Origin: a virus
Virus record (IMG/VR): IMGVR_UViG_3300021168_000013
DNA length: 64,000 bases
Direction: 5' to 3' (one strand)
Shown here: positions 21,525 to 63,979 of the stretch, in pieces
Numbering within the stretch: position 1 is the first letter of the stretch
How the letters are laid out: each line of letters opens with the position of its first letter
Made by a program: the position numbers and the translations under genes
The notes under the pieces: generated by a model
The model's input: only the letters and a program-made list of their open reading frames with translations
Database searches by the model: none
What the model was told of the DNA's origin: nothing

Positions 21525-22055
21525 ATGAACTCACAAGATTTAAAGAATATAATAAAGACCATAGTTCAAGAGGAAGTGAAAAAACAACTTCCTTCTATGA
21601 TAACACAAGTACTTTCAGAAGCATTAACTGGTAATAAATCACCAGTTGTAAAACGACAAGTTATTTCGACTCCTCCTGTTGTGGCTAAACCAAAAGAACA
21701 AAAACAGTATGTTAAAAACCCTCTTTTAAATGAGATTTTGAATAATACAACGGTGAAAATTAAACAAGAAAATACACCGTTTGTCGGGTATTCTGAGACA
21801 TTTGCACCCGGTAGTTCAGAAGATATTAATATAATTGATAATAATCAATCAGAAGAAGAGAATATTGATTATGGTTCATTAAATGAATCGCATGTAAATC
21901 AGATTCCCGTGGTATCAAACATTACACCTACCACACAGGAACAGGCAAAGGTTTTAAGTAAGATAAATAGAGATTTTAGGTCTATAATGAAGACGGTGGA
22001 TGAAAAAAGGAAAAATGGGGGATTTAGCAGTGGAGCCGTATCATTGGAGCAATAA
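21525..22055 (+). CDS. Hypothetical virion protein
   Basis: N-terminus LKNIIKTIVQEEV resembles those of the other late/head proteins in this window. Confidence 0.65.
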   Translation: MNSQDLKNIIKTIVQEEVKKQLPSMITQVLSEALTGNKSPVVKRQVISTPPVVAKPKEQKQYVKNPLLNEILNNTTVKIKQENTPFVGYSETFAPGSSEDINIIDNNQSEEENIDYGSLNESHVNQIPVVSNITPTTQEQAKVLSKINRDFRSIMKTVDEKRKNGGFSSGAVSLEQ

Positions 22056-39277: not shown

Positions 39278-39559
39278 ATGGCAGACCCAAAAAGACCCTC
39301 AACTACAATATCATTGGCCGACAGATACGCCTCACAGAAGGTTGGAGGAGCGTATAATGCCAAATTGGCAGGAACATCTACTGATTTTTCGCCACAAGCA
39401 TCACGGTACGACACTACGGGTAATTTCGTGGTAGATCAGCAATTAGGAGTTTCTAATTTCAAAGGAACAACCAATCAGAATTACAAAGAAATATCCTTAT
39501 TGGCTCAAGGTTTAAGTAATTATAAATACGATCCAAGTGGCGGACCACTTAATTATTAA
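39278..39559 (+). CDS. Small late/virion protein
   Basis: Has its own TATTTATA motif and AAAGGA ribosome-binding site. Its 3' end overlaps the convergent GIY-YIG gene by 11 bp. Confidence 0.7.
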   Translation: MADPKRPSTTISLADRYASQKVGGAYNAKLAGTSTDFSPQASRYDTTGNFVVDQQLGVSNFKGTTNQNYKEISLLAQGLSNYKYDPSGGPLNY

Positions 39560-39956
39560 TAGTTTTTCGGATTCTTACTCTTCCTCCTACATACTCATTA
39601 TAATAGCTATTGTCATATAAGGCATTAGCTATTATTATTTGTTTCATTTCTTCGTAACTTAATTCGGATTTACTATTACACCACGATAATATTTCAAATT
39701 TGAAGTTTTCTTTACCAATCTTAGTGATATCATCATTCAACTGATTACAAGACCCTGTATACGTTTTCCAATCAGATTCTTTAGTTCCACGGCGTTTATT
39801 AGTTCTTCCCTTAAGTGGCTTTTTTGATGTTTTGAACTTTAAGAGCTTCTTTCCAATGTACTTCCTGTCATTAACTAAATTATGGATTTCATATATAAAT
39901 CCAATACATTCAGTTGGTGGTTCACCGATAACATTCGTCCAATGGCCATAATTCAT
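39549..39956 (-). CDS. GIY-YIG family endonuclease
   Basis: GFIYEIHNLVNDRKYIGKK motif, ESDWKTYTGS, and the E...N residues of the catalytic core (SYEE, YYNEY). Confidence 0.85.
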   Translation of the reverse strand: MNYGHWTNVIGEPPTECIGFIYEIHNLVNDRKYIGKKLLKFKTSKKPLKGRTNKRRGTKESDWKTYTGSCNQLNDDITKIGKENFKFEILSWCNSKSELSYEEMKQIIIANALYDNSYYNEYVGGRVRIRKTINN

Positions 39957-41001: not shown

Positions 41002-44000
41002 ATGATTAAATTAGAATCCGACATTACAAATTTTACAAATGTATTACACATTGGTGATATACATATAAGACTTGTTCAACGGCATCAGGAATATACCGAG
41101 GTATTTAATTCTCTTTACAATGCCATTGATAAAACTCCTGATACCACATTGGTATTAATAGCGGGAGATATTTTTCATAATAAATCCGATTTAAGTCCTG
41201 AATCAGTAAAACTTGCCACGGATTTTTTGAAGAATATCGCAGATCGGCGTCCAACCATATTAATAGCGGGAAATCATGATGCCACTCTAGCAAATAAAAA
41301 TCGATTGGATAGTTTGAGTCCAGTTATAGACGCGATACAACATAAGAACCTATTTTATTTAAAGGATAGCGATACATATATCATAGGCGATGTATTATTT
41401 AATAACTATTCAGTATTTACGGAATCGGATAAATATATAAAATACAAAGATATTCCAAGTATTTATAGAAACCAAGTAAATTACAATATTGCTCTATATC
41501 ATGGCCCTGTTAATAATGCTATAACAGATGTGGGATATGTTGTCAGTAACAGAACCATCATGGCCGAATTGTTTGATGGGCATCAAATGGTGATGCTAGG
41601 TGATATTCATAAACATCAGGTATTACAGGAATACGATGCCAATTTGGATAAACCAGCTATTGTCTATGTTGGAAGTTTAATCCAACAAGATCATGGCGAA
41701 CATTTGTCGGGTCACGGATTTGTTTATTGGGAGTTAAAATCCAAGAAATTTAAACATGTTGAGATTCCTAATGATTATGGGTTTTTTACGGTGGAAGTAA
41801 ACAAAGGACAACTTACCACTGATGTAAAATCTATACCAAAAAAAGCCAAACTTAGAATTAAGTGTATAGAAAGTATTCAAACCGAGATTAAGTCTATATT
41901 ATCCGATCTAAGAAAAGTATCAGAAATAACTGATGTGAGTTACGTTAGAGTAGAAGAGGGCGATGGTTCAAATAACATCATAAATGCAACTAATTTCAAT
42001 CTACAAAATGTTTCGGATGTTGATTACCAAAATAATCTAATCAAGGAATATCTTACTAATAAAAAAATCAGTATATCGGAGGATACATTAAAATGTATAT
42101 TCACCTTAAACAAGACTCTCAATGATGAATTGAAGAAGGAATATGTAGTCAGAAATATCAGGTGGAAACCTAAAATTTTTGAATTTGACAACATGTTCAG
42201 TTATGGGGAGGGAAATATTATAGATTTCTCAAAAATGAATGGAGTAATGGGATTATTCGCCAATAATGCTAGCGGTAAAAGCAGTATTCTATCGGCTTTA
42301 AGCTTTTGTTTATTTGATAAATGTGATAGAGCCTTTAAAGCCTCTCATATATTAAACAGTCAGAAAATGACATTTCGATGCAAATTCAACTTTGAAATCA
42401 ATGGGGTTGATTATTATATTGAGAGAAAGGCTAATTCCGATAAGAAAGGAAACGTCAAGGTTGATGTTAAATTTTGGAAAGTTGTTAGTGGAGCAGACGT
42501 TGAATTGAACGGAGAGGCAAGACGAAGTACCAATGATATTATCAGAGATTATATCGGAGAATATGAGGATTTTGTTTTAACTGTATTGTCTATCCAAAAT
42601 GGAAAAGACGGGAGTTTTGTTGATATGGGCCAAACAGAAAGAAAAGATTTGCTTGCCCAATTCATGGGACTTACTATTTTTGATAAACTTAGTAATCTCG
42701 TGGTAGAAAAATATAGAGAGAGTTCTATATTACTAAAAAATCTCAATCAGGAAGATTATACCATTAAATTGAATGATATTGAGAATAATATACTCACTAT
42801 TACAAAATCAATTCAAGATGAGACGGCTCAGGTTGACAAACTTCATCACGATAAAGATGAAAAGAGTAATGAACTTATTGAGTTGACTAAAAAATTAATC
42901 AATGTTGATTCAGATACGGAAGATATCACTATATTGGAAACTCAGAAGGTTGACATAACCAAGAATATCGAATCCATAACAATTCAGATTAATTCTCTTA
43001 AACAAGAGATACTGCGTAAAGAGGACGGTCTTAAATTGGAACAAAGTAAATTTGATGAATTTACCAAAAATAAAGTATCGCAAACATTTGAATCTTTCAA
43101 TCTTCAAAAGAAAGAATTGGTTAAATTAGAATCAACCATTGAGCGTAAGAGGGTCGAGATTAGAAATAAACTTGACAAACTAGCAAAGCTTGAGGAACAT
43201 AAGTACGATCCGAATTGTAATTTCTGTATAAACAACGTGTTTGTGAAAGACGCAATTAAAACCAAGGCAGAATTAGAGAAAGATAGACAGGATGTTATTC
43301 CTTTAATGGAATCATTTAAAAAACTCAAACAGGATGTTGCATCCCTTGAATGGGTTGTGGATACACATCACAGTTATAAATTTTGTCAAGAGTGTATTGG
43401 ATTAATAGGTATTGCTATTTCCACGGTCAGAAATGATCTATTGAAGTCCGAGAATAAGTTGGCGCAACTTACAGCTAAATTATTATCATTAAACACCAAG
43501 ATTGATTTATTCTATCAACAAAAAGAAACCATTGAGAATAACAAGGTAATAAACCAAGAAATTCGTGTGGTTAAAGACTCTGTTAAAAGATTGGATTCTG
43601 AATATAAATCTATAAATAAGCATCTTATTGACTTGACAAGTGACCTAAGATCATTTTCTAACGATAAAAGGCAGATCGAAATTAATATTTTGAAATTGAA
43701 AGAATTGGAGTCTCAAAACGATTGTTATAAGTACTACACTCAAGCCATTAGTCGAGATGGTATTCCATATGATTTGATAACTCAAACGTTGCCAGCCGTA
43801 GAAAAAGAAGTAAATGATATATTACATCAAATAGTTGAGTTTACGGTTGCTTTAAAGACAGATGGTAAAAACATAAGCACTTGGATTGTTTATAGTGATA
43901 AAACTTGGCCTTTGGAAATGTCAAGTGGAATGGAGAAATTCATAAGTTCTTTGGCTATAAGAGTGGCATTAATCAATATTAGTAATCTACCAAGACCCAA

Positions 44001-44196
44001 TTTTATTATTTTCGATGAAGGATGGGGTACATTAGACGCTGATCACATTTCCGAAGTAAAGCTGTTATTTGATTATCTTAAGACGAATTTTGATTTTATA
44101 TTGATTATATCACACATTGACTCAATCAAAGATTTGGTTGACAAATTGCTGGAAATCAGTAAAGACAAGGGATTTTCTCAAATTAAATATACTTAA
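41002..44196 (+). CDS. gp47-gp46: Fused recombination nuclease-ATPase (Mre11/SbcD + Rad50/SbcC)
   Basis: Phosphoesterase motifs DIH, GDIFH, GNHD, YHG, GDIHK. Walker A NNASGKS, coiled coils, Zn-hook CNFC, signature SSGMEK, Walker B/D-loop FDEGWGTLD, H-loop ISH. All in one uninterrupted ORF. Confidence 0.92.
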   Translation: MIKLESDITNFTNVLHIGDIHIRLVQRHQEYTEVFNSLYNAIDKTPDTTLVLIAGDIFHNKSDLSPESVKLATDFLKNIADRRPTILIAGNHDATLANKNRLDSLSPVIDAIQHKNLFYLKDSDTYIIGDVLFNNYSVFTESDKYIKYKDIPSIYRNQVNYNIALYHGPVNNAITDVGYVVSNRTIMAELFDGHQMVMLGDIHKHQVLQEYDANLDKPAIVYVGSLIQQDHGEHLSGHGFVYWELKSKKFKHVEIPNDYGFFTVEVNKGQLTTDVKSIPKKAKLRIKCIESIQTEIKSILSDLRKVSEITDVSYVRVEEGDGSNNIINATNFNLQNVSDVDYQNNLIKEYLTNKKISISEDTLKCIFTLNKTLNDELKKEYVVRNIRWKPKIFEFDNMFSYGEGNIIDFSKMNGVMGLFANNASGKSSILSALSFCLFDKCDRAFKASHILNSQKMTFRCKFNFEINGVDYYIERKANSDKKGNVKVDVKFWKVVSGADVELNGEARRSTNDIIRDYIGEYEDFVLTVLSIQNGKDGSFVDMGQTERKDLLAQFMGLTIFDKLSNLVVEKYRESSILLKNLNQEDYTIKLNDIENNILTITKSIQDETAQVDKLHHDKDEKSNELIELTKKLINVDSDTEDITILETQKVDITKNIESITIQINSLKQEILRKEDGLKLEQSKFDEFTKNKVSQTFESFNLQKKELVKLESTIERKRVEIRNKLDKLAKLEEHKYDPNCNFCINNVFVKDAIKTKAELEKDRQDVIPLMESFKKLKQDVASLEWVVDTHHSYKFCQECIGLIGIAISTVRNDLLKSENKLAQLTAKLLSLNTKIDLFYQQKETIENNKVINQEIRVVKDSVKRLDSEYKSINKHLIDLTSDLRSFSNDKRQIEINILKLKELESQNDCYKYYTQAISRDGIPYDLITQTLPAVEKEVNDILHQIVEFTVALKTDGKNISTWIVYSDKTWPLEMSSGMEKFISSLAIRVALINISNLPRPNFIIFDEGWGTLDADHISEVKLLFDYLKTNFDFILIISHIDSIKDLVDKLLEISKDKGFSQIKYT

Positions 44197-50230: not shown

Positions 50231-50261
50231 AACCCGTGATGTCAAAATCACGGGTTTTTCA
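50231..50261 (+). terminator. Rho-independent terminator after the sheath gene
   Basis: Perfect 10-bp stem AACCCGTGAT (50231-50240) / ATCACGGGTT (50247-50256), 6-nt loop, followed by a short T tract. Confidence 0.85.
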
Positions 50262-50286: not shown

Positions 50287-53200
50287 ATGAATAGTTTATC
50301 CAAATACCTTGTGGACTCATTAAGACCCAGTGTTTCTCATAGTTTATATAAAATGTATGAGTTCAAAGGCGCACTAAATGAAGATGCTAGAATTCAACAT
50401 GCTGAAGATGTTATATTTTGGGAAGGTTCGGTTGGGGCAAAAAGAGTATTACAAAGCTTCTTGGAGATTCAAAAACAAGGATATAAAAACATCACTATAA
50501 AATGGGATGGGTCACCAGCAATTGTATTCGGGAGAAACCCTTCTGGACAATTTGTATTAACTGATAAAAATGGTTTTTTTGCCAAAGGCTATAACGGAAA
50601 AGCTACGTCAGGAGATGAACTTGAGAAGATGTTTTTAGCAAGAGGTGGTGGTGGAGAAAAGAGCGAAGAATTTAAAGCATTTGCTGGACAAATGAAGTCG
50701 ATATTTAGTATATTTGAGAGTGCTATTCCAGTCAATTTTCGTGGATATTTTAAGGGAGATTTATTATACTCAAAGACTCCTCCAATAAAAGACGGTAACT
50801 ATGTTTTCAAACCAAATATTGTCACATATTATGTGGATATAAATTCGGAATTAGGAAAGAAAATATCACACAGTGTATCAGCAGTAGTTATTCATAGATT
50901 CATGGATGAAACTGGAAAGGAAACTGCCATAACAGATTTCAGTATTTTTCAAGGAGAAAAATTATTAGTTATTCCTCCTATAACTATTCAGAAAGCACCT
51001 AAAGTAGATAACAATAAAATAAAAGAGACATTGTCAGATATCGCTAAATACGGAAAAGCTATTGACAAAATGTTAGATGAGAAAACTTTAATTTCACTGA
51101 AATTGGTTGATTTCCCTGATACGTTGTATAGATACATAAATTCCAAAGTTGATACTGGGTTGACTAATTTAGGTAAAGATTTTGAGGCGTGGGTGGTTAC
51201 TGGGTCTAAGTTAACCGAAGTAAAAAGAAAAAGAATGTTGGAATACATCAAGGCCAATCAATCAGCATTTGATGGACTGTGGTTAATTGTTGGTAATATA
51301 ATGAGTATCAAAGATTCTGTGGTAAATGATATCGACCAACAGAGTTTACCTATCAAAGCCTTTATTGGTAATGTTCCTAGTGGAGAGGGTTATGTATTAT
51401 CCCATCCAAAGGGTGATATAAAATTTGTGTCTAGACCGATTTTTACTGCGGCCAACCGAGCAGTTCAACGGGAAACTATCGCAAATTATGATTTTGATAT
51501 ACCCGATTATCAACGGGAATTAAAAGAAGGCGGCTTTTTAAAACCTGAATTAACTGCTAAAACCAAAATAACACCACAAGTAGTTAATGCTGTGTTCGAT
51601 AATGCTAAGAAGTTTCTCAGGGAGTTTAATGAATATCTTAAAGCCAAAGGCCATTCCATGATAATGGATATTAAGATATTGGGTTCGGCCAGATATTTCC
51701 AACAAGATTTACAAACAAACCCAAATGAACAATATGGTGATATAGATATAATGTTCGTTTTGCCGGAAGCTGATAGTGATGAAAATGAGGCAAAAGTCAA
51801 GACTCTATATTCCAAATTAATAGTTGATTTCGTTAAGACATCCAATCAAAATTACATTGATAAAGAAAGTGCGGAAAGAAGTGGTGGCACTCAATTAGTA
51901 GTTAAGATAGATGATAAAGAATGGGTTCAATTTGATTTGCTATTCACGTTTAAAAAGTATGGAGATTGGTTTTCCACTAGATTCAGTCCACAAAGAGGAG
52001 TTAAAGGATTTGTGACTGGTAAATTATATTCGGCATTGGCAGAGACTTTAAATATTAGAATAGGAGATAGAGGAGTTCGTGCTAAGTTACAGAATGGGCA
52101 AATTACAAATCCTTTATTGAGGAAAGGTGTAATAGACAAATTAATATCAACTAGTCCTACAGATTTCTTGTTTGAGTTATTTCATTTCCTAACCGAATTA
52201 TTTGATATAAAGTACACCAGTGATCAAATTGATTCCCGATTGAATTCCCATAAAGGGTTGAATCCTGAAAATATTCAATTTACTGATTTGGCGGAAGGTA
52301 TAGCGGGACTTGTTCAGAGTTTAGATAATGTTGGGGTATTGCGTAAAATGAATACATCTCATGCTGCATTTATAGATTCTATAAAAACTAAATATGAAGA
52401 GAAAATTGCTGAAGATATCGCTTTTAAATCAAAAAAGGCCACGGATGTCGATACTCAACATAGATTGATTAAAATAAAAAGGGATGCGGAAACTGGTAAA
52501 GAATTGGTTAATAGACTGATTAGAGAGTTTACCGAGCAATTTAATGAGTATATCAACGAGAGCGGGAATGCTGTAGCCACGAATTCAAAGGTTCCTAGAC
52601 AATATCTGGAGTCTACAGTATCTAATGGATTAAATATGTATAAACTAGGTACATTAAAATATGAAATCGTAGGCAATAAACAGAAGGAATACCTAGGTGA
52701 CATAGATGTGGCTACTTCCGTAATTGGTTTAGAAAAGATATTGGGTGTTTCTTATGAAGCAGATAAGAAGGAATTCTATAAAAAGTTAGATGATTATATA
52801 AAAAGCAAGGTTCCTAGTAATGTTCCTCAACCAGCTTACAAAGTTATGGCTGGATTGGATCAATTAAGTATAAATGTTCCAATAGTTGATTCAACTGGTA
52901 AAATAATGAAATCAACTGAAACCAATGAAGAAGAGGGGTATGCTCAATTAGATTTAATGATTGGTGATGTGGATTTCATGAATAAAGCTTTAAGTGGTGC
53001 TCCTGATAGCAAATACAAAGCCGCTCTTAGAAATTTGTTACTGATGTCTATAACAAGATATAGTTATGCTCCTACAGCCGTTCCTAATATAAAAACTCGT
53101 TATCAATTTAATTGGAAAAAGGGGATGCAAAAGTTGGATGTTATTACAAATGATAAAGGAAAAGAAGAAAAGCATAATATAAAAACAGTTACTAATAATA

Positions 53201-53373
53201 TGGATGATGTGGCAGTTTTTTTATTTGGTAAAAATCACACGTTTAATGACATTAACACTTTTGAAAAACTATTTAAATTGATGAATAGTAATGATTTCCG
53301 TTATAAGGAACATAAAAACGAAATCATCGCAGATTTTAAAGGTGAAATTAAAAAGTTGGGTTTTGCAATATAA
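50287..53373 (+). CDS. Multidomain nucleotidyltransferase: ligase-superfamily (DUF6267-like) domain plus two Pol-beta-family NTase domains
   Basis: Start moved to ATG 50287; the track start lies inside the terminator. Motifs are KWDG / KGDLL / EGYVL / IKFV, then LGS...GDIDI...QFDL, then IVGN...GDIDV...QLDL. Confidence 0.7.
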   Translation: MNSLSKYLVDSLRPSVSHSLYKMYEFKGALNEDARIQHAEDVIFWEGSVGAKRVLQSFLEIQKQGYKNITIKWDGSPAIVFGRNPSGQFVLTDKNGFFAKGYNGKATSGDELEKMFLARGGGGEKSEEFKAFAGQMKSIFSIFESAIPVNFRGYFKGDLLYSKTPPIKDGNYVFKPNIVTYYVDINSELGKKISHSVSAVVIHRFMDETGKETAITDFSIFQGEKLLVIPPITIQKAPKVDNNKIKETLSDIAKYGKAIDKMLDEKTLISLKLVDFPDTLYRYINSKVDTGLTNLGKDFEAWVVTGSKLTEVKRKRMLEYIKANQSAFDGLWLIVGNIMSIKDSVVNDIDQQSLPIKAFIGNVPSGEGYVLSHPKGDIKFVSRPIFTAANRAVQRETIANYDFDIPDYQRELKEGGFLKPELTAKTKITPQVVNAVFDNAKKFLREFNEYLKAKGHSMIMDIKILGSARYFQQDLQTNPNEQYGDIDIMFVLPEADSDENEAKVKTLYSKLIVDFVKTSNQNYIDKESAERSGGTQLVVKIDDKEWVQFDLLFTFKKYGDWFSTRFSPQRGVKGFVTGKLYSALAETLNIRIGDRGVRAKLQNGQITNPLLRKGVIDKLISTSPTDFLFELFHFLTELFDIKYTSDQIDSRLNSHKGLNPENIQFTDLAEGIAGLVQSLDNVGVLRKMNTSHAAFIDSIKTKYEEKIAEDIAFKSKKATDVDTQHRLIKIKRDAETGKELVNRLIREFTEQFNEYINESGNAVATNSKVPRQYLESTVSNGLNMYKLGTLKYEIVGNKQKEYLGDIDVATSVIGLEKILGVSYEADKKEFYKKLDDYIKSKVPSNVPQPAYKVMAGLDQLSINVPIVDSTGKIMKSTETNEEEGYAQLDLMIGDVDFMNKALSGAPDSKYKAALRNLLLMSITRYSYAPTAVPNIKTRYQFNWKKGMQKLDVITNDKGKEEKHNIKTVTNNMDDVAVFLFGKNHTFNDINTFEKLFKLMNSNDFRYKEHKNEIIADFKGEIKKLGFAI

Positions 53374-53379
53374 AAAGTT

Positions 53380-54123
53380 ATGAAGCGAGCAAAAAATAAG
53401 TCGAATTTATCGATCATCCAAGACTATGTCGATGATGTCAGACCATTCACACAAATTAGTATGGTTGGAACTGATGAATTATCAAAACGAAAAGAGGGGG
53501 AAGAATGGACTGATGCTACTGGGAAAAAATGGAAAAAAAAGAATGGTGTCAAAACCAAACTTAACAAGATAAAAACTACTGCATTAGATGTTGCCAATCA
53601 ATCATATGTCTGTTCCATATGTAAATGTGACACCCGCTTTAGCACAAACGCCATGAAACGTTTTGATCAACAGGTTATATTCAAAACACGAAAATGTTAT
53701 GATTGTTTTATAGAATTTGAGACTCTTTTAAAATTCAAAGGATTTTTCAACGATTATGAGAAGTTTAGATCATACACCAATTTCAAAAATTATCTACTGG
53801 ATTTTAGACAAAAATTAAATGAAACAGTTACTTGGTGTAATTCTCCAGATTCCAAAAAAATTCAATCATTGAATGATACTGGAATAAATAGTGTTGAGTT
53901 ACAAACGGAATATGACACCACTGATAAAGTAGAGATCGTTAAACGTGATGCGATTAAGGATTTAGCAGAGATTGATTCTAAAATGAAAGATGTTGATATA
54001 TTTCTTTCTGAACTGGATTTTGATTATAATAAAATAAAGGATGTAGAAAAATTCATGAAAAAGAAATACAAAAAAGGTAGAAATACCGAAGAATTTAAAA
54101 TCAAAATGGGGAGTGCTAATTAA
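53380..54123 (+). CDS. Hypothetical Zn-finger protein immediately upstream of TerL
   Basis: KRKEGEEWTDATGKKWKKKNG, CSIC...CYDC and C-terminal helices. It ends 1 nt before the TerL start. Confidence 0.7.
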   Translation: MKRAKNKSNLSIIQDYVDDVRPFTQISMVGTDELSKRKEGEEWTDATGKKWKKKNGVKTKLNKIKTTALDVANQSYVCSICKCDTRFSTNAMKRFDQQVIFKTRKCYDCFIEFETLLKFKGFFNDYEKFRSYTNFKNYLLDFRQKLNETVTWCNSPDSKKIQSLNDTGINSVELQTEYDTTDKVEIVKRDAIKDLAEIDSKMKDVDIFLSELDFDYNKIKDVEKFMKKKYKKGRNTEEFKIKMGSAN

Positions 54124-54124
54124 T

Positions 54125-55732
54125 ATGGCACCAGAATCAAAAAATCTACGGGATGTAATTAAGGAAGAATATAAAAAATGTTTCCTTGACCCTATGTATT
54201 TCATGAAGAAATACGTTAAAATTCAACATCAAACTCGCGGTATTATAGGATTTGAGTTATATCCATTCCAAGAAGAAACTCTCAAGGATTTTATTACTAA
54301 CGATAGAAATATCGTGTTAAAATCGAGACAGATGGGCATTTCAACACTGTGTGCGGCGTATTCATTGTGGACTATGATATTCAACCCGGGAAAGAACGTG
54401 TTGATCATTTCTACCAAACAAGATACTTCAAAAGAAATTGTTTCCAAGATTCGTTTGGCTAATAATAATTTACCAAGTTGGTTAAGAATTCAAACGGCGG
54501 AGGATAATAGATTGTCTTTAAAATTTACCAACGAATCTAAAGTTGAGGCAGCTTCTTCTTCTTCTGATTCAGTTCGTGGTAAATCTGCTTATTTGGTGAT
54601 ATTGGACGAGTGCGCTTTCATTGATGATGTTGAGGCTATCTGGACATCGGCTCAACAAACTATTGGTACAGGTGGCCGTGCTATATTGTTGTCCACACCA
54701 AACGGTGTTGGTAATTTTTTCCACAAGATGTGGGTGGAGTCAGAAGCTAAGAGAAATAGTTTTCATACTATTAAACTTAAATGGAATCTTCATCCTGAAA
54801 GAAATCAGGAATGGCGTGATAGACAGACTATTGAACTTGGTATTAAAAAAGCATCACAGGAGTGCGATACCGAATTCTTAAGTTCTGGTAATACTGTAGT
54901 CGAAATTCAATTAATTGAAGAGTATAGAAAGGAAGTAAAAGAACCTGTAGAAACTCGTGGTGTAGATCATGCATATTGGATATGGGATAGACCCGATTAT
55001 AGTTTGGATTATCTAATAAGTGCTGACGTTGCTAGAGGAGATGGAAATGATTTCAGTGCATTTCAAGTCATTGATCCAGTAAACTTAGTACAGGTGGCTG
55101 AATATAAAGGGGTGATAGGGACTAAGGAGTATGGTAATATGTTGGTGGCAGCGGCAACCGAATATAATAATGCATTATTAGTTATTGAAAATGCATCATA
55201 TGGGTGGGCAACTATCCAACAAGTAATCGATAGAAATTATAAGAATTTATTCTATAGTAGTGCGGATTTGCAATATGTAGATGTCGAACAACACATTACT
55301 AATAAACTAAACGCATTAGATAAAAAGTTGATACCGGGATTTACTAACAGTACCAAGACACGTCCATTGATAATAAATAAGCTTGAGACGTGTATGCGAG
55401 ATAAATCTTTCACTATTCGTTCTAAACGATTATTGGATGAATTATCTACATTTGTTTGGAATAATGGAAAAGCTGAAGCGATGCGTAATTATAATGATGA
55501 TTTAATTCTCAGTGCTGCTATTGGTTTATGGATTAGAGACACCGCATTGAGATTAAATAAAGAATCCATGAGTATAAACAGAGTTATATTGGATGGTATC
55601 CGAAGGACTGGTATAACAGAGACTACTATTCTAAAGTACTCACAGAATAGAGAAAATGCCAAAAAATCATGGACTTTTGAGCTTCCGGGTGGTGCCAGAA
55701 ACAAAAAAGAAACGTTAAATTGGTTATTATAA
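54125..55732 (+). CDS. gp17: Terminase large subunit
   Basis: Start moved to ATG 54125. Walker A KSRQMGIST, Walker B LVILDECAF, STPNG, nuclease SADVARG...DFSA...DDLI. Confidence 0.97.
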   Translation: MAPESKNLRDVIKEEYKKCFLDPMYFMKKYVKIQHQTRGIIGFELYPFQEETLKDFITNDRNIVLKSRQMGISTLCAAYSLWTMIFNPGKNVLIISTKQDTSKEIVSKIRLANNNLPSWLRIQTAEDNRLSLKFTNESKVEAASSSSDSVRGKSAYLVILDECAFIDDVEAIWTSAQQTIGTGGRAILLSTPNGVGNFFHKMWVESEAKRNSFHTIKLKWNLHPERNQEWRDRQTIELGIKKASQECDTEFLSSGNTVVEIQLIEEYRKEVKEPVETRGVDHAYWIWDRPDYSLDYLISADVARGDGNDFSAFQVIDPVNLVQVAEYKGVIGTKEYGNMLVAAATEYNNALLVIENASYGWATIQQVIDRNYKNLFYSSADLQYVDVEQHITNKLNALDKKLIPGFTNSTKTRPLIINKLETCMRDKSFTIRSKRLLDELSTFVWNNGKAEAMRNYNDDLILSAAIGLWIRDTALRLNKESMSINRVILDGIRRTGITETTILKYSQNRENAKKSWTFELPGGARNKKETLNWLL

Positions 55733-57749: not shown

Positions 57750-58616
57750 ATGAGCAAACCTAAGCACTCTAAGTTTAGAAATACAGGTATTCTGTTTGAA
57801 CTGTTGACAAGACAGATTACCGCAGATATTTTGGCTAATAAAGAAGACTCTGTCGCCAAGAAAATATTGTTTAAATACTTTTCTGAAAGTAAAGAGATTG
57901 GCAAGGAATGGCAATTATATCACTTTCTTTTAAATGAGAAGGCAAAGAATGAGACTCAGGCCGAAAAATATATAGATATTGTACTCAATAAAAGATCAAA
58001 ATTAAGTAATAAGACTCTAAATGAAGAGAAATACAACTTAATTAAGGAAATTAAAGAAACCTATCCAATTGAGGACTTTTTAAAATCCACTATTAAAAAC
58101 TATAAAGTTAATGCCTCTATTTGTAAGTTATTCGAGGACTGTACCATTGTTGAGAACAAATTCGATATTCAAGAAATTATTCAATCGAGAAATTGCATCA
58201 TGGAACATCTCTGTGGTGTTAAAATGGAAGTAAAAGAAAAGACCGAAGATAAGTTAATAACCTTCTATAAACAGCAAAACGAGGAAATTAGATTATTAAG
58301 TTATAAGTTATTGGTTGATTCAATGAATGAGAAGTACAAGAACTTGGATGATTTCCAAAAGAACATATTGAGAGAGTATATTAATAACATATCTAATACT
58401 AATAATCTGACAACAGTTGTTACTAATGAGTTTTCAAAAATCAAATCAATTTTAAATGAGCTAAGAACCAAGGTTGATGACAATGTTGTATCGATCAAGA
58501 TAAATGAAACGATTAAGCAATTGGATAAGATTAAGTTCAAGTCGGTCAAAGATAATCATATTATGGCTGTATTGCTTGGGTATGAATTGATTAAAGAGAT
58601 AAAAGGTAAATTATGA
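57750..58616 (+). CDS. Hypothetical head-module protein
   Basis: KHSKFRNTGILFELL N-terminus, all-helical, located between portal and protease. Confidence 0.75.
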   Translation: MSKPKHSKFRNTGILFELLTRQITADILANKEDSVAKKILFKYFSESKEIGKEWQLYHFLLNEKAKNETQAEKYIDIVLNKRSKLSNKTLNEEKYNLIKEIKETYPIEDFLKSTIKNYKVNASICKLFEDCTIVENKFDIQEIIQSRNCIMEHLCGVKMEVKEKTEDKLITFYKQQNEEIRLLSYKLLVDSMNEKYKNLDDFQKNILREYINNISNTNNLTTVVTNEFSKIKSILNELRTKVDDNVVSIKINETIKQLDKIKFKSVKDNHIMAVLLGYELIKEIKGKL

Positions 58617-58901: not shown

Positions 58902-59435
58902 ATGTTAAAATTAAAGATTTTACTAGAAGCAGATGAAAAGCCAATCGCTCAACCAGCCGTCGCTCCCGCAGCACCTGCTGAAAAACAACCTGCTCAGGCT
59001 CCTACCGAACCTGCTGCTCAGGGAGCATCTACTGAATATAGTCCAGCTTTTGATTTTAATGATTTCGAGACTAAATTAGCACAAGCCACTGAATCTGCTA
59101 AGAATAATTTTCAAGAGAAATTGATGTCTAAGGTTGGTGGTAAACAAGTATTGGTAAGAGCATCAAAAGGTCAGCCGGGCCAGCCATTAAAGGATTATAC
59201 CATTGATGTCACAAGTGTTAGTGTTGATTATTACTATGATAGATATGTTGTTATATTGAAGGATGAGAAGGAAAAAGAATACTTTTTAAATACAATGATG
59301 AAAATAAAGGTATTGGGGCCGGGAGAGACAGCGGGAAATAAGGCTCCTAAAGCAGCGTCTGCTCCAGCAGCACCATCTGCTCCAGCACAACCTGCGCCGG
59401 AACAAACCCCAAATACGGCTACACAAGGAATTTAA
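58902..59435 (+). CDS. Head-module protein with Pro/Ala-rich arms
   Basis: MLKLKILLE N-terminus and PAPA low-complexity flanks around a small globular core. Confidence 0.7.
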   Translation: MLKLKILLEADEKPIAQPAVAPAAPAEKQPAQAPTEPAAQGASTEYSPAFDFNDFETKLAQATESAKNNFQEKLMSKVGGKQVLVRASKGQPGQPLKDYTIDVTSVSVDYYYDRYVVILKDEKEKEYFLNTMMKIKVLGPGETAGNKAPKAASAPAAPSAPAQPAPEQTPNTATQGI

Positions 59436-59436
59436 T

Positions 59437-60054
59437 ATGAACAAAGAATTACTAATAGACTGTCTATCGTTCGAGATATCAAAAGATGTTATAAACGAGG
59501 TATCTTCTAAGAGTGGACCGTTTATTGTCAAGGGTGTACTACAACGTGCTAATGCAAAGAATCAAAATGGTAGAGTTTATCCAAAAAACATACTTGAAAG
59601 AGAAGCAAAGAAGTATCAAGATAACTTTATCAAAGAACGTAGAGCATTAGGTGAATTAGATCATCCAGAGAGTCAAGTGGTAAATCTTCAAAATGTTAGC
59701 CACAACGTCATTGATATGGAATGGAATAGTGATGATTTAGTTGGAACAGTAGAAGTATTGACAACACCAAGTGGAAATATTTTAAGAGAATTGTTCAAGG
59801 CTGGAATAAAACTTGGGATAAGTTCTCGTGGAATGGGCAGTGTCAAGAAGAATGTCCGAGAAAGTGCCGATGAAGTCCAAGATGATTTTGAATTGATTGC
59901 GTTTGATTTTGTTAGTAATCCATCAACAAGAGGGGCATTTTTATATCCCGATGGTCAAAATCAAATCCAAGAAGGTGTCGTAAGAAATCCTATTACTAAT
60001 AAATGGGAGAAAACTGAGACAATCATCAGGGATATATTAAACAATTTAAGTTAA
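59437..60054 (+). CDS. gp21: Prohead core protease
   Basis: NQNGRVYP, GELDHP, GISSRGMGS, FDFVSNPST. Confidence 0.97.
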   Translation: MNKELLIDCLSFEISKDVINEVSSKSGPFIVKGVLQRANAKNQNGRVYPKNILEREAKKYQDNFIKERRALGELDHPESQVVNLQNVSHNVIDMEWNSDDLVGTVEVLTTPSGNILRELFKAGIKLGISSRGMGSVKKNVRESADEVQDDFELIAFDFVSNPSTRGAFLYPDGQNQIQEGVVRNPITNKWEKTETIIRDILNNLS

Positions 60055-60134: not shown

Positions 60135-60533
60135 ATGAAATCGTTAAAGCAAATAATTGAAGAATCTGGGCTTGGTGGATTCAGTAATGAAAACCCACAG
60201 CAACAGAAGATGTCTGCCGAAGCAAAGAAACAGTTGCTAGGCATGGTCAATCAATATAATGAAGTTGGTAAGAAACTTTATGAATATGGCGATGTTCGTG
60301 AGATAGCCGAGAGATTGTTGACAGTTGCTGAACTTGCCGAAAAATATGCATTAGAAGAAGCTAGTGAAGATATGTTACAAACTGGACGTGTTGAGAGAGA
60401 CATGAAGGATATCAAGAAAGAAGCCGGTGATCTTCGTAAAATTGCGTTGGAAGCATGGAAATCAAATGAAAGATTGAAAGCTTCATATGAAAGAATCGGT
60501 AAGACACTTGAGAATTACTACGAATTAAACTAA
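60135..60533 (+). CDS. Small helical head-module protein
   Basis: Start moved to ATG 60135 (MKSLKQIIEE); the track start at 60090 lies upstream of the promoter motif. Confidence 0.75.
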   Translation: MKSLKQIIEESGLGGFSNENPQQQKMSAEAKKQLLGMVNQYNEVGKKLYEYGDVREIAERLLTVAELAEKYALEEASEDMLQTGRVERDMKDIKKEAGDLRKIALEAWKSNERLKASYERIGKTLENYYELN

Positions 60534-61688: not shown

Positions 61689-62624
61689 TTAATGATTTTT
61701 AATTATAATTTCGGGGCTGGTTTTTTTAGATTTTTTGAATACTATATAAAGTATATTATATCCAATATTGAATGCTGTTGATATTTTTGCTAGATTTTTT
61801 TCTTTTTGTGCTTTGTGAGTATATATTGATTTAATTTCAACAATTGTATTGGTGGATTTTATAAAAATATCAGGAAAATAATTATGAGTTCTTCCATTAA
61901 AAGTATATTCTATGATAGGACATTCCTTTTCCGATGATGTTACAATATCATCTTCTTTGATATTATATTTTGTTAATAAATAATCAATTCCTCTGTCTTC
62001 ATAACCTTGTATTACTGTTCGTTTCCCCGATGGAAATATATATTCTTTCTTTTTATATCTTGCAATAAATCGCGCTTTTATCCAATCCAGTGTTTGTGGT
62101 CTGTTTACATTATTGGTTGCACATTTTATACACTTAATGTTATTTTTTCTCTGAAGACTTTGGATTTTATTTCTTACGACTACTTTTCCACAACATGGAT
62201 AAGTAATTGTGTATTCTTTTGTTATATTATTGTATATTATCCATTCTGGTAATGATTTATATGGTCCGCATTTTCTGTTTTTAATATTAATCCTATTTGC
62301 ACAACTATTGCATACACTATTCTTTTTAAAAAGTTCGGTTGCAGTGTATTTATTTATATAAGATAATATATTATTACATTGTGGACATTTTCTTTCATAT
62401 TTTTTGTTGATGACATTATAACAAACACCTTTAATGGTTTTACAAATAACACATTTATCCCCCAATGTTTTCGATGAATGATATGAAACAAACGAATGTA
62501 TATTACCGCACGTTTTACATGTTTTAATCCATACATTATTTTCTCTTTTTATATTGTCTGGATAAATCTTTTTAAATATGTCAGGATTAATTCTATATTG
62601 TTTTTGATATTCTTGTAATGTCAT
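61689..62624 (-). CDS. Zn-ribbon-repeat PD-(D/E)xK endonuclease, probable free-standing homing endonuclease
   Basis: Three Cys-cluster repeats (CKTC..CVIC, CPQC..CNSC, PCC..CIKC) and C-terminal YFPDIFIKSTNTIVEIKS. AGGAG precedes ATG 62624 (alternative start 62642). Very AT-rich. Confidence 0.75.
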   Translation of the reverse strand: MTLQEYQKQYRINPDIFKKIYPDNIKRENNVWIKTCKTCGNIHSFVSYHSSKTLGDKCVICKTIKGVCYNVINKKYERKCPQCNNILSYINKYTATELFKKNSVCNSCANRINIKNRKCGPYKSLPEWIIYNNITKEYTITYPCCGKVVVRNKIQSLQRKNNIKCIKCATNNVNRPQTLDWIKARFIARYKKKEYIFPSGKRTVIQGYEDRGIDYLLTKYNIKEDDIVTSSEKECPIIEYTFNGRTHNYFPDIFIKSTNTIVEIKSIYTHKAQKEKNLAKISTAFNIGYNILYIVFKKSKKTSPEIIIKNH

Positions 62625-62818
62625 AATTCTCCTATTATACATATAATCAAAAACATAAAATATTTAAAAATATTTTATTTTAATAAATCATTTTATATTT
62701 TTCGGTGATTTTTATATATGTATTGTTACTAAAGAATACAATATACTCTATATTGTCCAATAAAATAATCTACTATTGGAGTTCATAAATAACTTCAGAA
62801 AATTAAGGAATTTAAAAT

Positions 62819-63979
62819 ATGTCAACATTATTTGAAGAAGCTATCGCTGATGCTAAAGCTGTTAGAGCAAGTGCTCTCGCTAATGCAAAAGCCGCATTAG
62901 AAGAGGCGTTTAAGCCACAAGTCGAAGCTATGCTTTCACAAAAATTAAAAGAAGAAGCTGGTATGGAAGAAGAAGGTGTGTTTGATAAAATCGCTGCCGG
63001 AACCTCAACCAGTGCTACTACATCTGCTCAGACTCATTATAAGTCTGCTGGTGGAAAAGAAGCTAATAAAGGTCAAGAAACTGACGTTTGGAAAGAAGGC
63101 GAAACTCAAGCTGTTGCTCCAACCGCTACTGCTCCAGCCCCAGTCCCAACGGGTCAAGGTGGACAAGGTGCTCCAGTTGCTGAAATGGCAAATGACGAGA
63201 CAGTGTCTGACAAAGAATTAGAAGAAATTTTGGCTGAATTAGGTCAAGAAATGTCCGAAGAAGGCGAAGTTCCTGCTCCTGCTGCTCCTGTAGCACCCGC
63301 TCCAGAAGCTCCTGCCGCTGTGGCACCAGAAGCTCCTGCTGCTCCTGTGGCTCCTGCTCCAGTTGCTGAACATGCTGAAGATCAAGAAGAAGTTGACTTA
63401 AATGAACTTCTCGCATCTTTGAATGAATCTGAAAAAGAGGAAGAGAAGAAAGACAAGGAAGAAGAAACTGTTGATGAGAATTACATTGATGGCAAGGCTG
63501 GTAAAGAGAAAGACCAAGAATATGGCAAAGCTGGCAAGAAAGTCAGTGGCGACCAAGATTATAAGAAAGTCTCTAAGGAATGCTATGAGAACGTTATTAA
63601 AGAACGTGATGATGCAGTTGCCGCAGTCGGTCATTATAAGAAACAGATCAATGAAGTTAATTTGTTAAATGCAAAACTTCTTTATACAAACAAATTGTTC
63701 AAGAACTATCCATTGTCCAATGAACAAAAGATGAAAATCGTCGAGACTTTCGACTTGACCCAGACGTTGCGTGAGGTCAAGATCGCATACACAAGTTTAG
63801 CTGAATCGTTTAATTTTGGTAAATCAGCGGTTAAAAAAACCAATACTGCTGCAAAAACTATTACCGAAGGATTAGCAAGTAAAACAGTAGCATCAACGAA
63901 GCCCGCTCCTAGCGTAATTGTTGAAAATACTAGCGCACAAGCAAAGAGATTCCAACTTCTTGCCGGAATCAAAGCTTAA
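62819..63979 (+). CDS. Prohead core scaffolding protein
   Basis: LFEEAIADAKAVR N-terminus, acidic coiled coil with Pro/Ala linkers and many LxE sites, EVNLLNAKLLYTNKLF, RFQLLAGI end, AAGGA upstream. This type of gene normally precedes the major capsid gene. Confidence 0.85.
   Translation: MSTLFEEAIADAKAVRASALANAKAALEEAFKPQVEAMLSQKLKEEAGMEEEGVFDKIAAGTSTSATTSAQTHYKSAGGKEANKGQETDVWKEGETQAVAPTATAPAPVPTGQGGQGAPVAEMANDETVSDKELEEILAELGQEMSEEGEVPAPAAPVAPAPEAPAAVAPEAPAAPVAPAPVAEHAEDQEEVDLNELLASLNESEKEEEKKDKEEETVDENYIDGKAGKEKDQEYGKAGKKVSGDQDYKKVSKECYENVIKERDDAVAAVGHYKKQINEVNLLNAKLLYTNKLFKNYPLSNEQKMKIVETFDLTQTLREVKIAYTSLAESFNFGKSAVKKTNTAAKTITEGLASKTVASTKPAPSVIVENTSAQAKRFQLLAGIKA

Follow-up and report, generated by a model that had tools for sequence, protein, structure and literature searches.

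The closest described counterparts of the gene reported here are the internal head proteins of bacteriophage T4. These carry a capsid-targeting sequence (CTS), MKTYQEFIAE (PMC8442874). Targeting depends on its residues 4 and 7 and processing on residues 8 and 10, and a review has proposed before that this sequence enables T4-like phages to load a range of proteins (PMC9026906). We examined a gene at positions 50,287 to 53,373 of a 64,000-nucleotide stretch of viral DNA, the IMG/VR record IMGVR_UViG_3300021168_000013 (hereafter the window). Its product of 1028 amino acids (aa) comprises a leader and three modules, A, B and C, each of which begins directly after an [L/I]-x-E motif. An initial annotation, generated by a model from the letters and the open reading frames (ORFs), had read the protein as a packaged polyprotein of three nucleotidyltransferases, and all coordinates and motifs that it listed are found at those places in the ORF translation. 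The computational checks that it proposed all turned out in its favor. We consider it slightly better than an even bet, with a probability of roughly 0.55, that the gene encodes a late polyprotein of one ligase-fold enzyme and two paralogous enzymes resembling family-X polymerases (PolX), which is packaged, cut by the prohead protease and injected, and which then repairs nucleic acid.

Like the T4 proteins IPI, IPII, IPIII and Alt, the 1028-aa protein has a leader that ends in [L/I]-x-E, and a protease of the gp21 family (Peptidase_S77) is encoded in the same head module. The E-F-I-x-E core of the T4 sequence recurs in the leaders of stand-alone relatives (MRAKEFIIE), the cargo is variable in both cases, and Alt shows that enzymes can be cargo. 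The differences lie in what follows the tag: T4 places one protein behind each, whereas here three enzymes share a chain with internal candidate cut sites, and the T4 cargo consists of restriction inhibitors or an ADP-ribosyltransferase, while ligase- and PolX-like enzymes would be packaged here. The leader also differs in length, with about 10 residues in T4 compared to 32 in this protein.

A second related concept is that of the polyvalent proteins (Iyer, Burroughs, Anand, de Souza and Aravind 2017, PMC5512222). They likewise combine several unrelated catalytic domains in one chain, are predicted to be packaged and delivered with the DNA, and draw on a shuffled repertoire that, as here, includes Pol-beta nucleotidyltransferases. 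They are typically anchored through MuF or portal proteins to which they are fused, and embedded peptidases release them, in contrast to the T4-style tags and the prohead protease presumed to act in trans in our case; a pairing of ligase and PolX-like modules was not found in the passages of the survey that were read. Pfam searches of the 1028-aa protein revealed no embedded peptidase, no MuF or portal fusion and no LPD markers.

Cleavage of many head proteins is known from the giant phages phiKZ, 201phi2-1 and SPN3US, whose distant gp21 homologues cut after the Glu of a short motif, sometimes at several sites per protein, and whose cleaved products are ejected (PMC9026906, PMC5694885). Their cargo, a virion RNA polymerase and inner-body proteins, is unlike the ligase- and PolX-like modules seen here. 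The phiKZ-type cleavage motif is a small residue-x-E, as opposed to L/I-x-E in this protein.

The enzymes themselves have a viral precedent in African swine fever virus (ASFV), whose Pol X and DNA ligase form a minimal base-excision repair pair. ASFV Pol X lacks the 8-kDa and fingers domains, as does module B, and has a viral ligase-fold partner. The two polymerase-like proteins share, however, only about 16% identity and no sequence-level family match, the predicted enzymes of the window are fused and duplicated, and module A differs from the ASFV ligase in having no OB domain and in looking closer to RNA ligases. Its best fold matches (Z scores of 6.8–7.9) are found among the enzymes of RNA repair, namely the T4 system (Pnkp with Rnl1/Rnl2), NgrRnl, REL1 and Trl1, which likewise have no OB domain. 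The T4 system differs in possessing Pnkp, since no kinase module is seen here, and module A carries a helical insert between motifs IIIa and IV. A HAD-type DxDxT phosphatase module that occurs in relatives is presumably of the same class as the phosphatase of T4 Pnkp. The T4 RNA-repair enzymes are not listed as head cargo in the reviews consulted.

What is new is the combination: several enzymes per chain split by putative prohead-protease sites, a ligase- and PolX-like cargo, and shuffled modules. In the literature searched, we found neither a description of a packaged ligase/PolX polyprotein nor a mention of DUF6267, the family to which module A belongs.

Predicted folds of the three modules

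Module A matches Pfam family DUF6267 (PF19782) with 101.9 bits against a cut-off of 27 (E-value 6e-29), residues 36–394 covering positions 4–375 of the 376 in the model. This sole family match is confined to the first third of the protein, and a search of PDB sequences with all 1028 residues returned nothing. AlphaFold models were made separately for residues 1–414 and 415–1028, each with an alignment of relatives, and the first has a predicted local distance difference test score (pLDDT) of 86. When module A was compared exhaustively with 48,161 representative PDB chains, the top 30 were without exception RNA ligases, DNA ligases and capping enzymes (Z 7.9–5.4, 144–208 residues aligned, root-mean-square deviation (rmsd) 3.8–7.2 Å). 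They include the Naegleria RNA ligase (5cot, Z 7.9), Trypanosoma REL1 (1xdn, 7.2), T4 Rnl2 (2hvq, 7.1), fungal Trl1 (6.8) and T7 DNA ligase (1a0i, 6.5). Foldseek returned nothing from the PDB at an E-value of 0.001 or better, its weak best rows being a mixture of the RNA ligases Trl1, Rnl1 and Rnl2 and of helical proteins such as CorA. Among the viral structures of BFVD, module A closely matches phage proteins that are uncharacterized or fused to a cytidyltransferase, and its more distant matches are annotated RNA ligases.

In 40 module A sequences, K72, D74, G75, D158, E367, G368 and K379 are invariant. Read from sequence and conservation, the motifs KWDG (K72 at 50500), GDLL (D158), EG (E367, within EGYVL, at 51385) and K379-x-V-x-R383 are all invariant and appear in ligase order. 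Together with the uniform list of fold matches, this supports a covalent-nucleotidyltransferase (RNA/DNA-ligase) fold for module A, as the initial annotation had claimed on the strength of the KWDG lysine and its companions. The OB-fold domain of DNA ligases is absent from the model: only a helix and a disordered linker, about 20 residues in all, come after motif V. Lacking this domain and carrying the helical insert (about residues 242–350), module A resembles RNA ligases more than DNA ligases.

The model of the C-terminal part is of higher confidence, with a pLDDT of 94.7. Its module B aligns with the palm and thumb of Pol beta (Z 10.4–10.5, 183–186 residues, rmsd 3.5–3.8 Å), with ASFV Pol X (Z 10.3, rmsd 3.2 Å, 170 of about 174–176 residues) and with TdT, Pol mu and Pol lambda (Z 8.8–10.5); 335 chains reach a Z of at least 8. 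The 8-kDa and fingers (helix-hairpin-helix) domains are missing from module B. The match begins in the palm at about residue 139–142 of Pol beta, and nothing lies upstream of the Gly-Gly start, so that module B has the same minimal form as ASFV Pol X. In the set LGS..GDIDI..QFDL, which starts at 51679, G466-S467 and the Asp triad D485 (51739), D487 (51745) and D550 (51934) are invariant in 38 sequences. By its model, module B is a family-X-polymerase-like palm and thumb, which bears out and narrows the Pol-beta-type domain of the initial annotation.

For module C the assignment runs through its relationship with module B. A profile-profile alignment of the two families with hhalign gave a probability of 95% (E-value 3e-8, 197 columns) and superposes the GDxD and QxD motifs as well as the region after them. 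The triad of module C, D805 (52699), D807 (52705) and D889 (52951), is invariant in 16 sequences, and an equally invariant G796-N797 replaces the G-S pair, the whole set (GN..GDIDV..QLDL) beginning at about 52670. The profile match identifies module C as a paralogue of B that has diverged from it. The third domain had also been annotated as Pol-beta-type; to this claim the profile match and the invariant triad lend weight, and what its fold contributes by itself is taken up below. A feature search with module C led to viral clusters, one of them with PF01909 on a third of its members.

Sequence comparison beyond the relatives is silent on both modules. Pfam searches gave no real family, whether run with B and C by themselves or with 16 members of their families, and neither PolX nor NTP_transf appeared at E-values up to 1–10. 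The profiles of module B (38 sequences) and module C found chance matches only among PDB sequences, and no polymerase. In a tblastn search of 50,697 deposited phage records, module B had no relative and module C only weak matches in Lak megaphages.

What might these nucleotidyltransferases act on? The initial annotation had offered end repair, NMPylation of host proteins and interference with nucleotide signals as equals. Of these, end repair is favored by the palm and thumb, while NMPylation and cyclic-nucleotide chemistry fit less well. Still, a protein that is packaged and cleaved could serve counter-defence: its enzymes might add tails or caps to host RNAs, nucleotidylate proteins of the host, or make or consume nucleotide signals (against the cyclic-oligonucleotide-based antiphage signaling system, CBASS, or in an anti-OAS-like manner). 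The palm of module B does match OAS1 (Z 8.6) as well as cGAS-like receptors, CD-NTases and TUTases (Z 6–7.8), and human OAS2, a tandem-nucleotidyltransferase protein, is the top Foldseek match of the two-module model. The T4 head cargo Alt and IPI act on host proteins or defence enzymes (PMC9026906, PMC3012670), and polyvalent phage proteins often carry Pol-beta nucleotidyltransferases predicted to modify proteins (PMC5512222). Yet the matches to OAS, cGAS-like enzymes, CD-NTases and TUTases extend over the palm only (about 110–125 residues, Z 6–8.6), whereas PolX enzymes match clearly better (Z 10.2–10.5) and over palm and thumb, and a ligase fold with HD and HAD phosphoesterase partners fits the healing and sealing of ends better. 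We therefore regard a counter-defence role as decidedly unlikely.

Conserved candidate cleavage motifs between the modules

Is the [L/I]-x-E motif in front of each module more than a coincidence? The three junctions, ALNE (50371–50382), ELKE (51517–51528) and YINE (52549–52560), are not the only candidates: the protein contains 18 [LIVM]-x-E triplets, so that a single one says little. Conservation sets them apart. In 15 full-length homologues, with identities down to 40%, only 5 of the 18 triplets are kept in at least 80% of the sequences, and E414 and E758 are the only ones that no homologue lacks. E32 is missing from a single homologue of the 15, P0048, whose sequence begins right after this site. 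The pLDDT falls below 50 only at residues 22–33 and 398–414 of the first model and at full-length residues 750–759 (336–345 of the second model), which places all three sites in exposed, disordered linkers. The statement of the initial annotation that each domain starts after an [L/I]-x-E motif is thereby extended to sites that are both conserved and disordered.

The same signature is found across the metagenomic relatives, in which we located the module starts with hidden Markov models whose first position is the first residue of the module, and took the sequence directly upstream as the junction. Among 202 distinct junctions, 193 have Glu at position P1 and about 190 have L, I, V, M or F at P3, while P2 is occupied by up to 17 different residues; in all exceptions the motif stands 1–3 residues further upstream. 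Nineteen modules begin with Met1 where the Glu would stand (MGGW..., MSGN..., MSRIQH). As Met replaces Glu in these leaderless copies, the Glu is a linker residue that the fold does not include.

Further information comes from modules that exist on their own. In a check that the initial annotation had proposed, stand-alone homologues of each module were found to begin exactly at the L-x-E boundaries. Their leaders have 5–30 residues with nothing upstream to link to, most often nine residues of the form M-[KR]-x-x-E-[FLI]-[IL]-x-E (MRAKEFIIE, MRLHEFISE, MKIHELISE). In the 1028-aa protein, residues 1–32 are a candidate capsid-targeting propeptide. A tag-like leader also occurs far from the head module, in a 176-aa ORF (21525–22055, + strand of the window) that starts MNSQDLKNIIKTIVQE/E, the slash marking the candidate cut.

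Module shuffling among relatives

Database searches found 283 relatives for the whole protein and 305 for its C-terminal part. The full-length homologues (37–99% identity) include P0002–P0041, P0047, P0048 and P0050. Among the relatives, modules appear in any order, with DUF6267 first or last, in proteins of 566–1818 residues, and they are joined by HD, HAD-type (DUF2608), cytidylyltransferase-like and Cu/Zn superoxide dismutase (SOD) modules. Whatever the order or partner, the [L/I]-x-E punctuation is kept before each module in hundreds of relatives.

Some of these architectures deserve mention. The 566-aa protein P0092 has a complete Cu/Zn SOD (PF00080, E-value 1e-47), preceded by a hydrophobic N-terminus, upstream of DUF6267, with the junction RPLKE/AARIQH. 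Cytidylyltransferase-like, HAD-type (YAFDLDDTLI), HD, PolX-like and DUF6267 modules are united in one chain in P0063 (1728 aa), P0064, P0125, P0153 and P0160; P0063 additionally contains a HEIEH (HExxH-like) string, and P0160 has a weak match to the polyvalent-protein domain LPD3 (E-value 0.027). In cyanomyoviruses, untagged DUF6267 genes adjoin cytidyltransferase-like genes (P-HM1 PHM1_161–163) or are fused with them (e.g. a 591-aa S-PM2 protein). This pairing points to a functional link of both enzymes that is independent of packaging.

Prohead protease and other tagged proteins

A processing enzyme would be at hand 6 kb downstream of the polyprotein gene. The gp21 homologue noted in the initial annotation at 59437 proved to be a Peptidase_S77 protein with 33% identity to T4 gp21 over 169 residues. 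Its ELDHP and SSRGMGS stretches align with ELNHP and SSRGLGS of T4 gp21; following the T4 literature, we take them to hold the catalytic His and Ser. Two small genes with tag-like starts flank the protease gene directly, and neither product matches a PHROG or Pfam family. The upstream one, Ala/Pro-rich, is likely a head-core or internal protein with a T4-style tag. Further downstream (62819–63979, + strand), a 386-aa acidic, Ala/Pro-rich protein without a family match contains [LI]-x-E 14 times and thus resembles a scaffold of the gp22 type, which would be degraded by the protease. Given the tagged genes around the protease and this scaffold-like protein, the T4 tag-and-cut system seems to operate in this phage.

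The proximity of protease and polyprotein gene is repeated in a relative: five long IMG/VR records were inspected for co-occurrence, and the only complete genome among them, of 296 kb, encodes an S77 protease within a few kb of its copy of the polyprotein gene, the other four being fragments of 16–27% and uninformative.

A location inside the structural block raises the thought that the protein is itself a structural part of the head core or scaffold, with enzyme-like folds that have lost their activity, all the more as T4 core proteins are likewise cut at L-x-E sites. Neither the lysine of motif I nor the two metal-binding Asp triads vary, however, across distant relatives, and the modules also exist as free-standing untagged genes, which makes such a purely structural part highly improbable.

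Proposed course of events and its consequences

From the comparison with T4, we infer that the 1028-aa protein is cleaved, packaged in the head and ejected. The polyprotein would be made late, and its N-terminal leader would carry it into the prohead core, as the CTS does for the internal proteins of T4. There the prohead protease would cut after E32, E414 and E758 and generate products of 42.8, 39.3 and 30.5 kDa, which would stay inside the capsid until they pass into the host along with the DNA. Ahead of any phage gene expression, gaps could then be filled or 3' ends lengthened by the PolX-like enzymes, and nicks sealed by the ligase-like one. They might act on DNA of the phage itself that is damaged or nicked, or on RNA that host nucleases have cut.

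Several lines of thought lead to repair. PolX-like and ligase-like enzymes occur together here, as Pol X and the ligase do in ASFV; the phosphoesterases (HD and HAD) that accompany the modules in relatives could clean 3' ends; and the SOD fusion fits a theme of oxidative damage. The palm and thumb likeness to PolX favors gap-filling or tailing of ends, followed by sealing.

A number of observations weigh against this proposal. The fold matches of module A are middling, with Z below 8, though the list is uniform; its motif III has an Asp, compared to the Glu usual in ligases; and hhalign gave a probability of 0.04 for the DUF6267 alignment and T4 Rnl2, which we count on this side even if a single-sequence template is uninformative. 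Module C taken alone matched only 4xul (Z 5.9), by which its own fold is barely tested. The leader of the 1028-aa protein, helical and 32 residues long, has only P3 and P1 in common with the T4 CTS, and its last five residues, GALNE, fit the core of that sequence less well than the nine-residue leaders of relatives do. Chance look-alikes of the junction motif exist, as the tail sheath begins with MPITEGG. The indications for a substrate conflict, the ligase module being more RNA-ligase-like and the nucleotidyltransferases resembling DNA polymerases, and no 5'-kinase module is seen. To mend RNA severed by an anticodon nuclease, such a kinase would be required. Finally, DUF6267 proteins of cyanophages (e.g. 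P-HM1 PHM1_161) have no L-x-E leader and are encoded among non-structural genes, next to cytidylyltransferases and mazG, and at least one tagged relative, P0107, is located among metabolic genes, not head genes.

Do the modules then simply form an ordinary cytoplasmic multi-domain repair enzyme, uncleaved and unpackaged, in which [LIV]-x-E-G-G serves as a conserved linker or N-cap and is carried along when they are shuffled? The untagged cyanophage homologues in non-structural regions and the metabolic surroundings of P0107 speak for it, and fusions of functionally linked enzymes are common, with many of DUF6267 and cytidyltransferase in BFVD. Nonetheless, a free P2 between a fixed P3 and P1 is more what one expects of a protease site than of a structural cap, the Glu gives way to Met in leaderless copies, the junction sites are disordered in the models, and the 5–30-residue leaders of stand-alone copies link to nothing and resemble the T4 CTS. 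On balance, a cytoplasmic enzyme of this kind, although the main rival reading, appears unlikely to us.

Returning to the packaged polyprotein, its confirmation would have consequences on several levels. T4-like phages would then deliver whole enzyme sets, beyond inhibitors and one ADP-ribosyltransferase, and nucleic acid would be mended on genome entry, which bears on the survival of phages under sunlight, oxidative damage and attack by host nucleases. Pfam DUF6267 would gain a function, PolX-like enzymes would gain two new minimal families that cultured phages do not have, and tailed phages would be seen to use a natural polyprotein strategy dependent on the prohead protease. The grammar of tag and cut could be reused for multi-protein delivery with engineered T4 capsids.

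A more general version can be offered only tentatively, at somewhat less than even odds: large uncultured T4-like aquatic phages may use [L/I]-x-E as a universal punctuation that strings together interchangeable enzymes in any order (RNA-ligase-like, PolX-like, HD, HAD phosphatase, cytidylyltransferase-like and Cu/Zn SOD), which are loaded, cut in the capsid and injected as a repair kit. To judge from the literature searched, no bacteriophage has yet been described that delivers DNA or RNA repair in its virions; this would be the first, and also a natural, modular counterpart of the engineered protein-delivery system that uses the T4 CTS.

Gene and genomic setting

The features of the locus are collected in Table 1.

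Table 1. Positions of the polyprotein gene, its predicted modules and selected neighbors in the window
Feature	Position	Strand	Basis or remark
Tail sheath, 1091 aa	46929-50204	+	sheath-family match
Terminator-like hairpin then T run, 3' of sheath gene	50231-50256	+	10-pair stem, 5 GC pairs
TATTTAT motif, 12 nucleotides 5' of start codon	50275-50281	+	word search of window
Whole gene, three-module protein, 1028 aa, 116 kDa	50287-53373	+	open from ATG 50287 to stop 53373
N-terminal leader, residues 1-32, ends at L30-N31-E32	50287-50382	+	predicted helix 3-26, then disordered stretch
Module A, residues 33-414, 42.8 kDa, ends at L412-K413-E414	50383-51528	+	DUF6267, predicted covalent-nucleotidyltransferase fold
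Module B, residues 415-758, 39.3 kDa, ends at I756-N757-E758	51529-52560	+	predicted PolX-like palm and thumb (about 416-665), then helical extension
Module C, residues 759-1028, 30.5 kDa	52561-53370	+	predicted divergent paralogue of module B, own Asp triad
247-aa ORF between polyprotein gene and TerL			
TerL	54113-55732	+	family match; portal further downstream
177-aa Ala/Pro-rich protein, starts MLKLKILLE/A	58902-59435	+	read from sequence; directly 5' of protease gene
Prohead protease, T4 gp21 homologue, proposed processing enzyme	59437-60054	+	Peptidase_S77 E 1.4e-27; phrog_207 E 6e-52
132-aa protein, starts MKSLKQIIEE/SG, second tagged candidate	60135-60533	+	directly 3' of protease gene; TATTTAT 29 nucleotides upstream

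The ATG at 50287 is the likely start, because the N-terminus MNxLSxY is common to the homologues P0003–P0005. A longer GTG start at 50236 falls within the terminator hairpin and was rejected; a start at Met23, which would leave a 10-residue leader (MYEFKGALNE), was not adopted, as the longer N-terminus is kept among homologues. The gene lies inside the sheath-terminase-portal block and on the same strand. The setting described in the initial annotation, a terminator-like hairpin, an own TATTTAT and a place between sheath and terminase, was recovered in full. The palindrome of the hairpin can be read on both strands, with TTTTTC behind it on the + strand.

TATTTAT also stands upstream of the sheath and portal genes and of the ORFs at 57750 and 60135 (+ strand). 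Eleven of its 40 + strand copies lie within 80 nucleotides upstream of a + strand ORF start, zones that make up 4.5% of the window, an enrichment somewhat inflated by AT-rich intergenic DNA. The 11 sites, written more fully as (A)TATTTAT(A/T), are placed 12–52 nucleotides upstream of + strand genes (e.g. 24535, 39251, 44214, 46877, 55744, 57730, 60106). Read on the other strand, the word gives the core of the T4 late box, and it may be the late-promoter element of this phage. The canonical T4 late box, TATAAATA, has no such placement before late genes in the window.

The window derives from an uncultured marine phage that is, by its sequence, a distant relative of T4. Its portal protein is 55% identical to that of Microcystis phage Mel-JY01 and 51% to that of Flavobacterium phage immuto, compared to only 26% for cyanomyoviruses, and related contigs are estimated by CheckV to be fragments of genomes of about 300–350 kb. 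No tRNA genes were found in the window.

Some further genes of the window are unusual. The sheath is remarkably long for its kind at 1091 aa; sheath families cover only residues 613–1090 or thereabouts, leaving some 600 N-terminal residues without explanation. A 1064-aa ORF (41002–44196, + strand) combines an SbcD/Mre11-like nuclease in its N-terminal third with an SbcC/Rad50-like remainder, matching phrog_100 over residues 10–361 and phrog_77 over residues 273–1063, and is of a fused gp47-gp46 type. Two ORFs run on the opposite strand inside the + strand structural block, one at 39549–39956 (-) with a GIY...YIG-like N-terminus (GFIYEIHNLVNDRKYIGK) and a Cys-rich one at 61689–62642 (-); both are probably insertions of the homing-endonuclease type.

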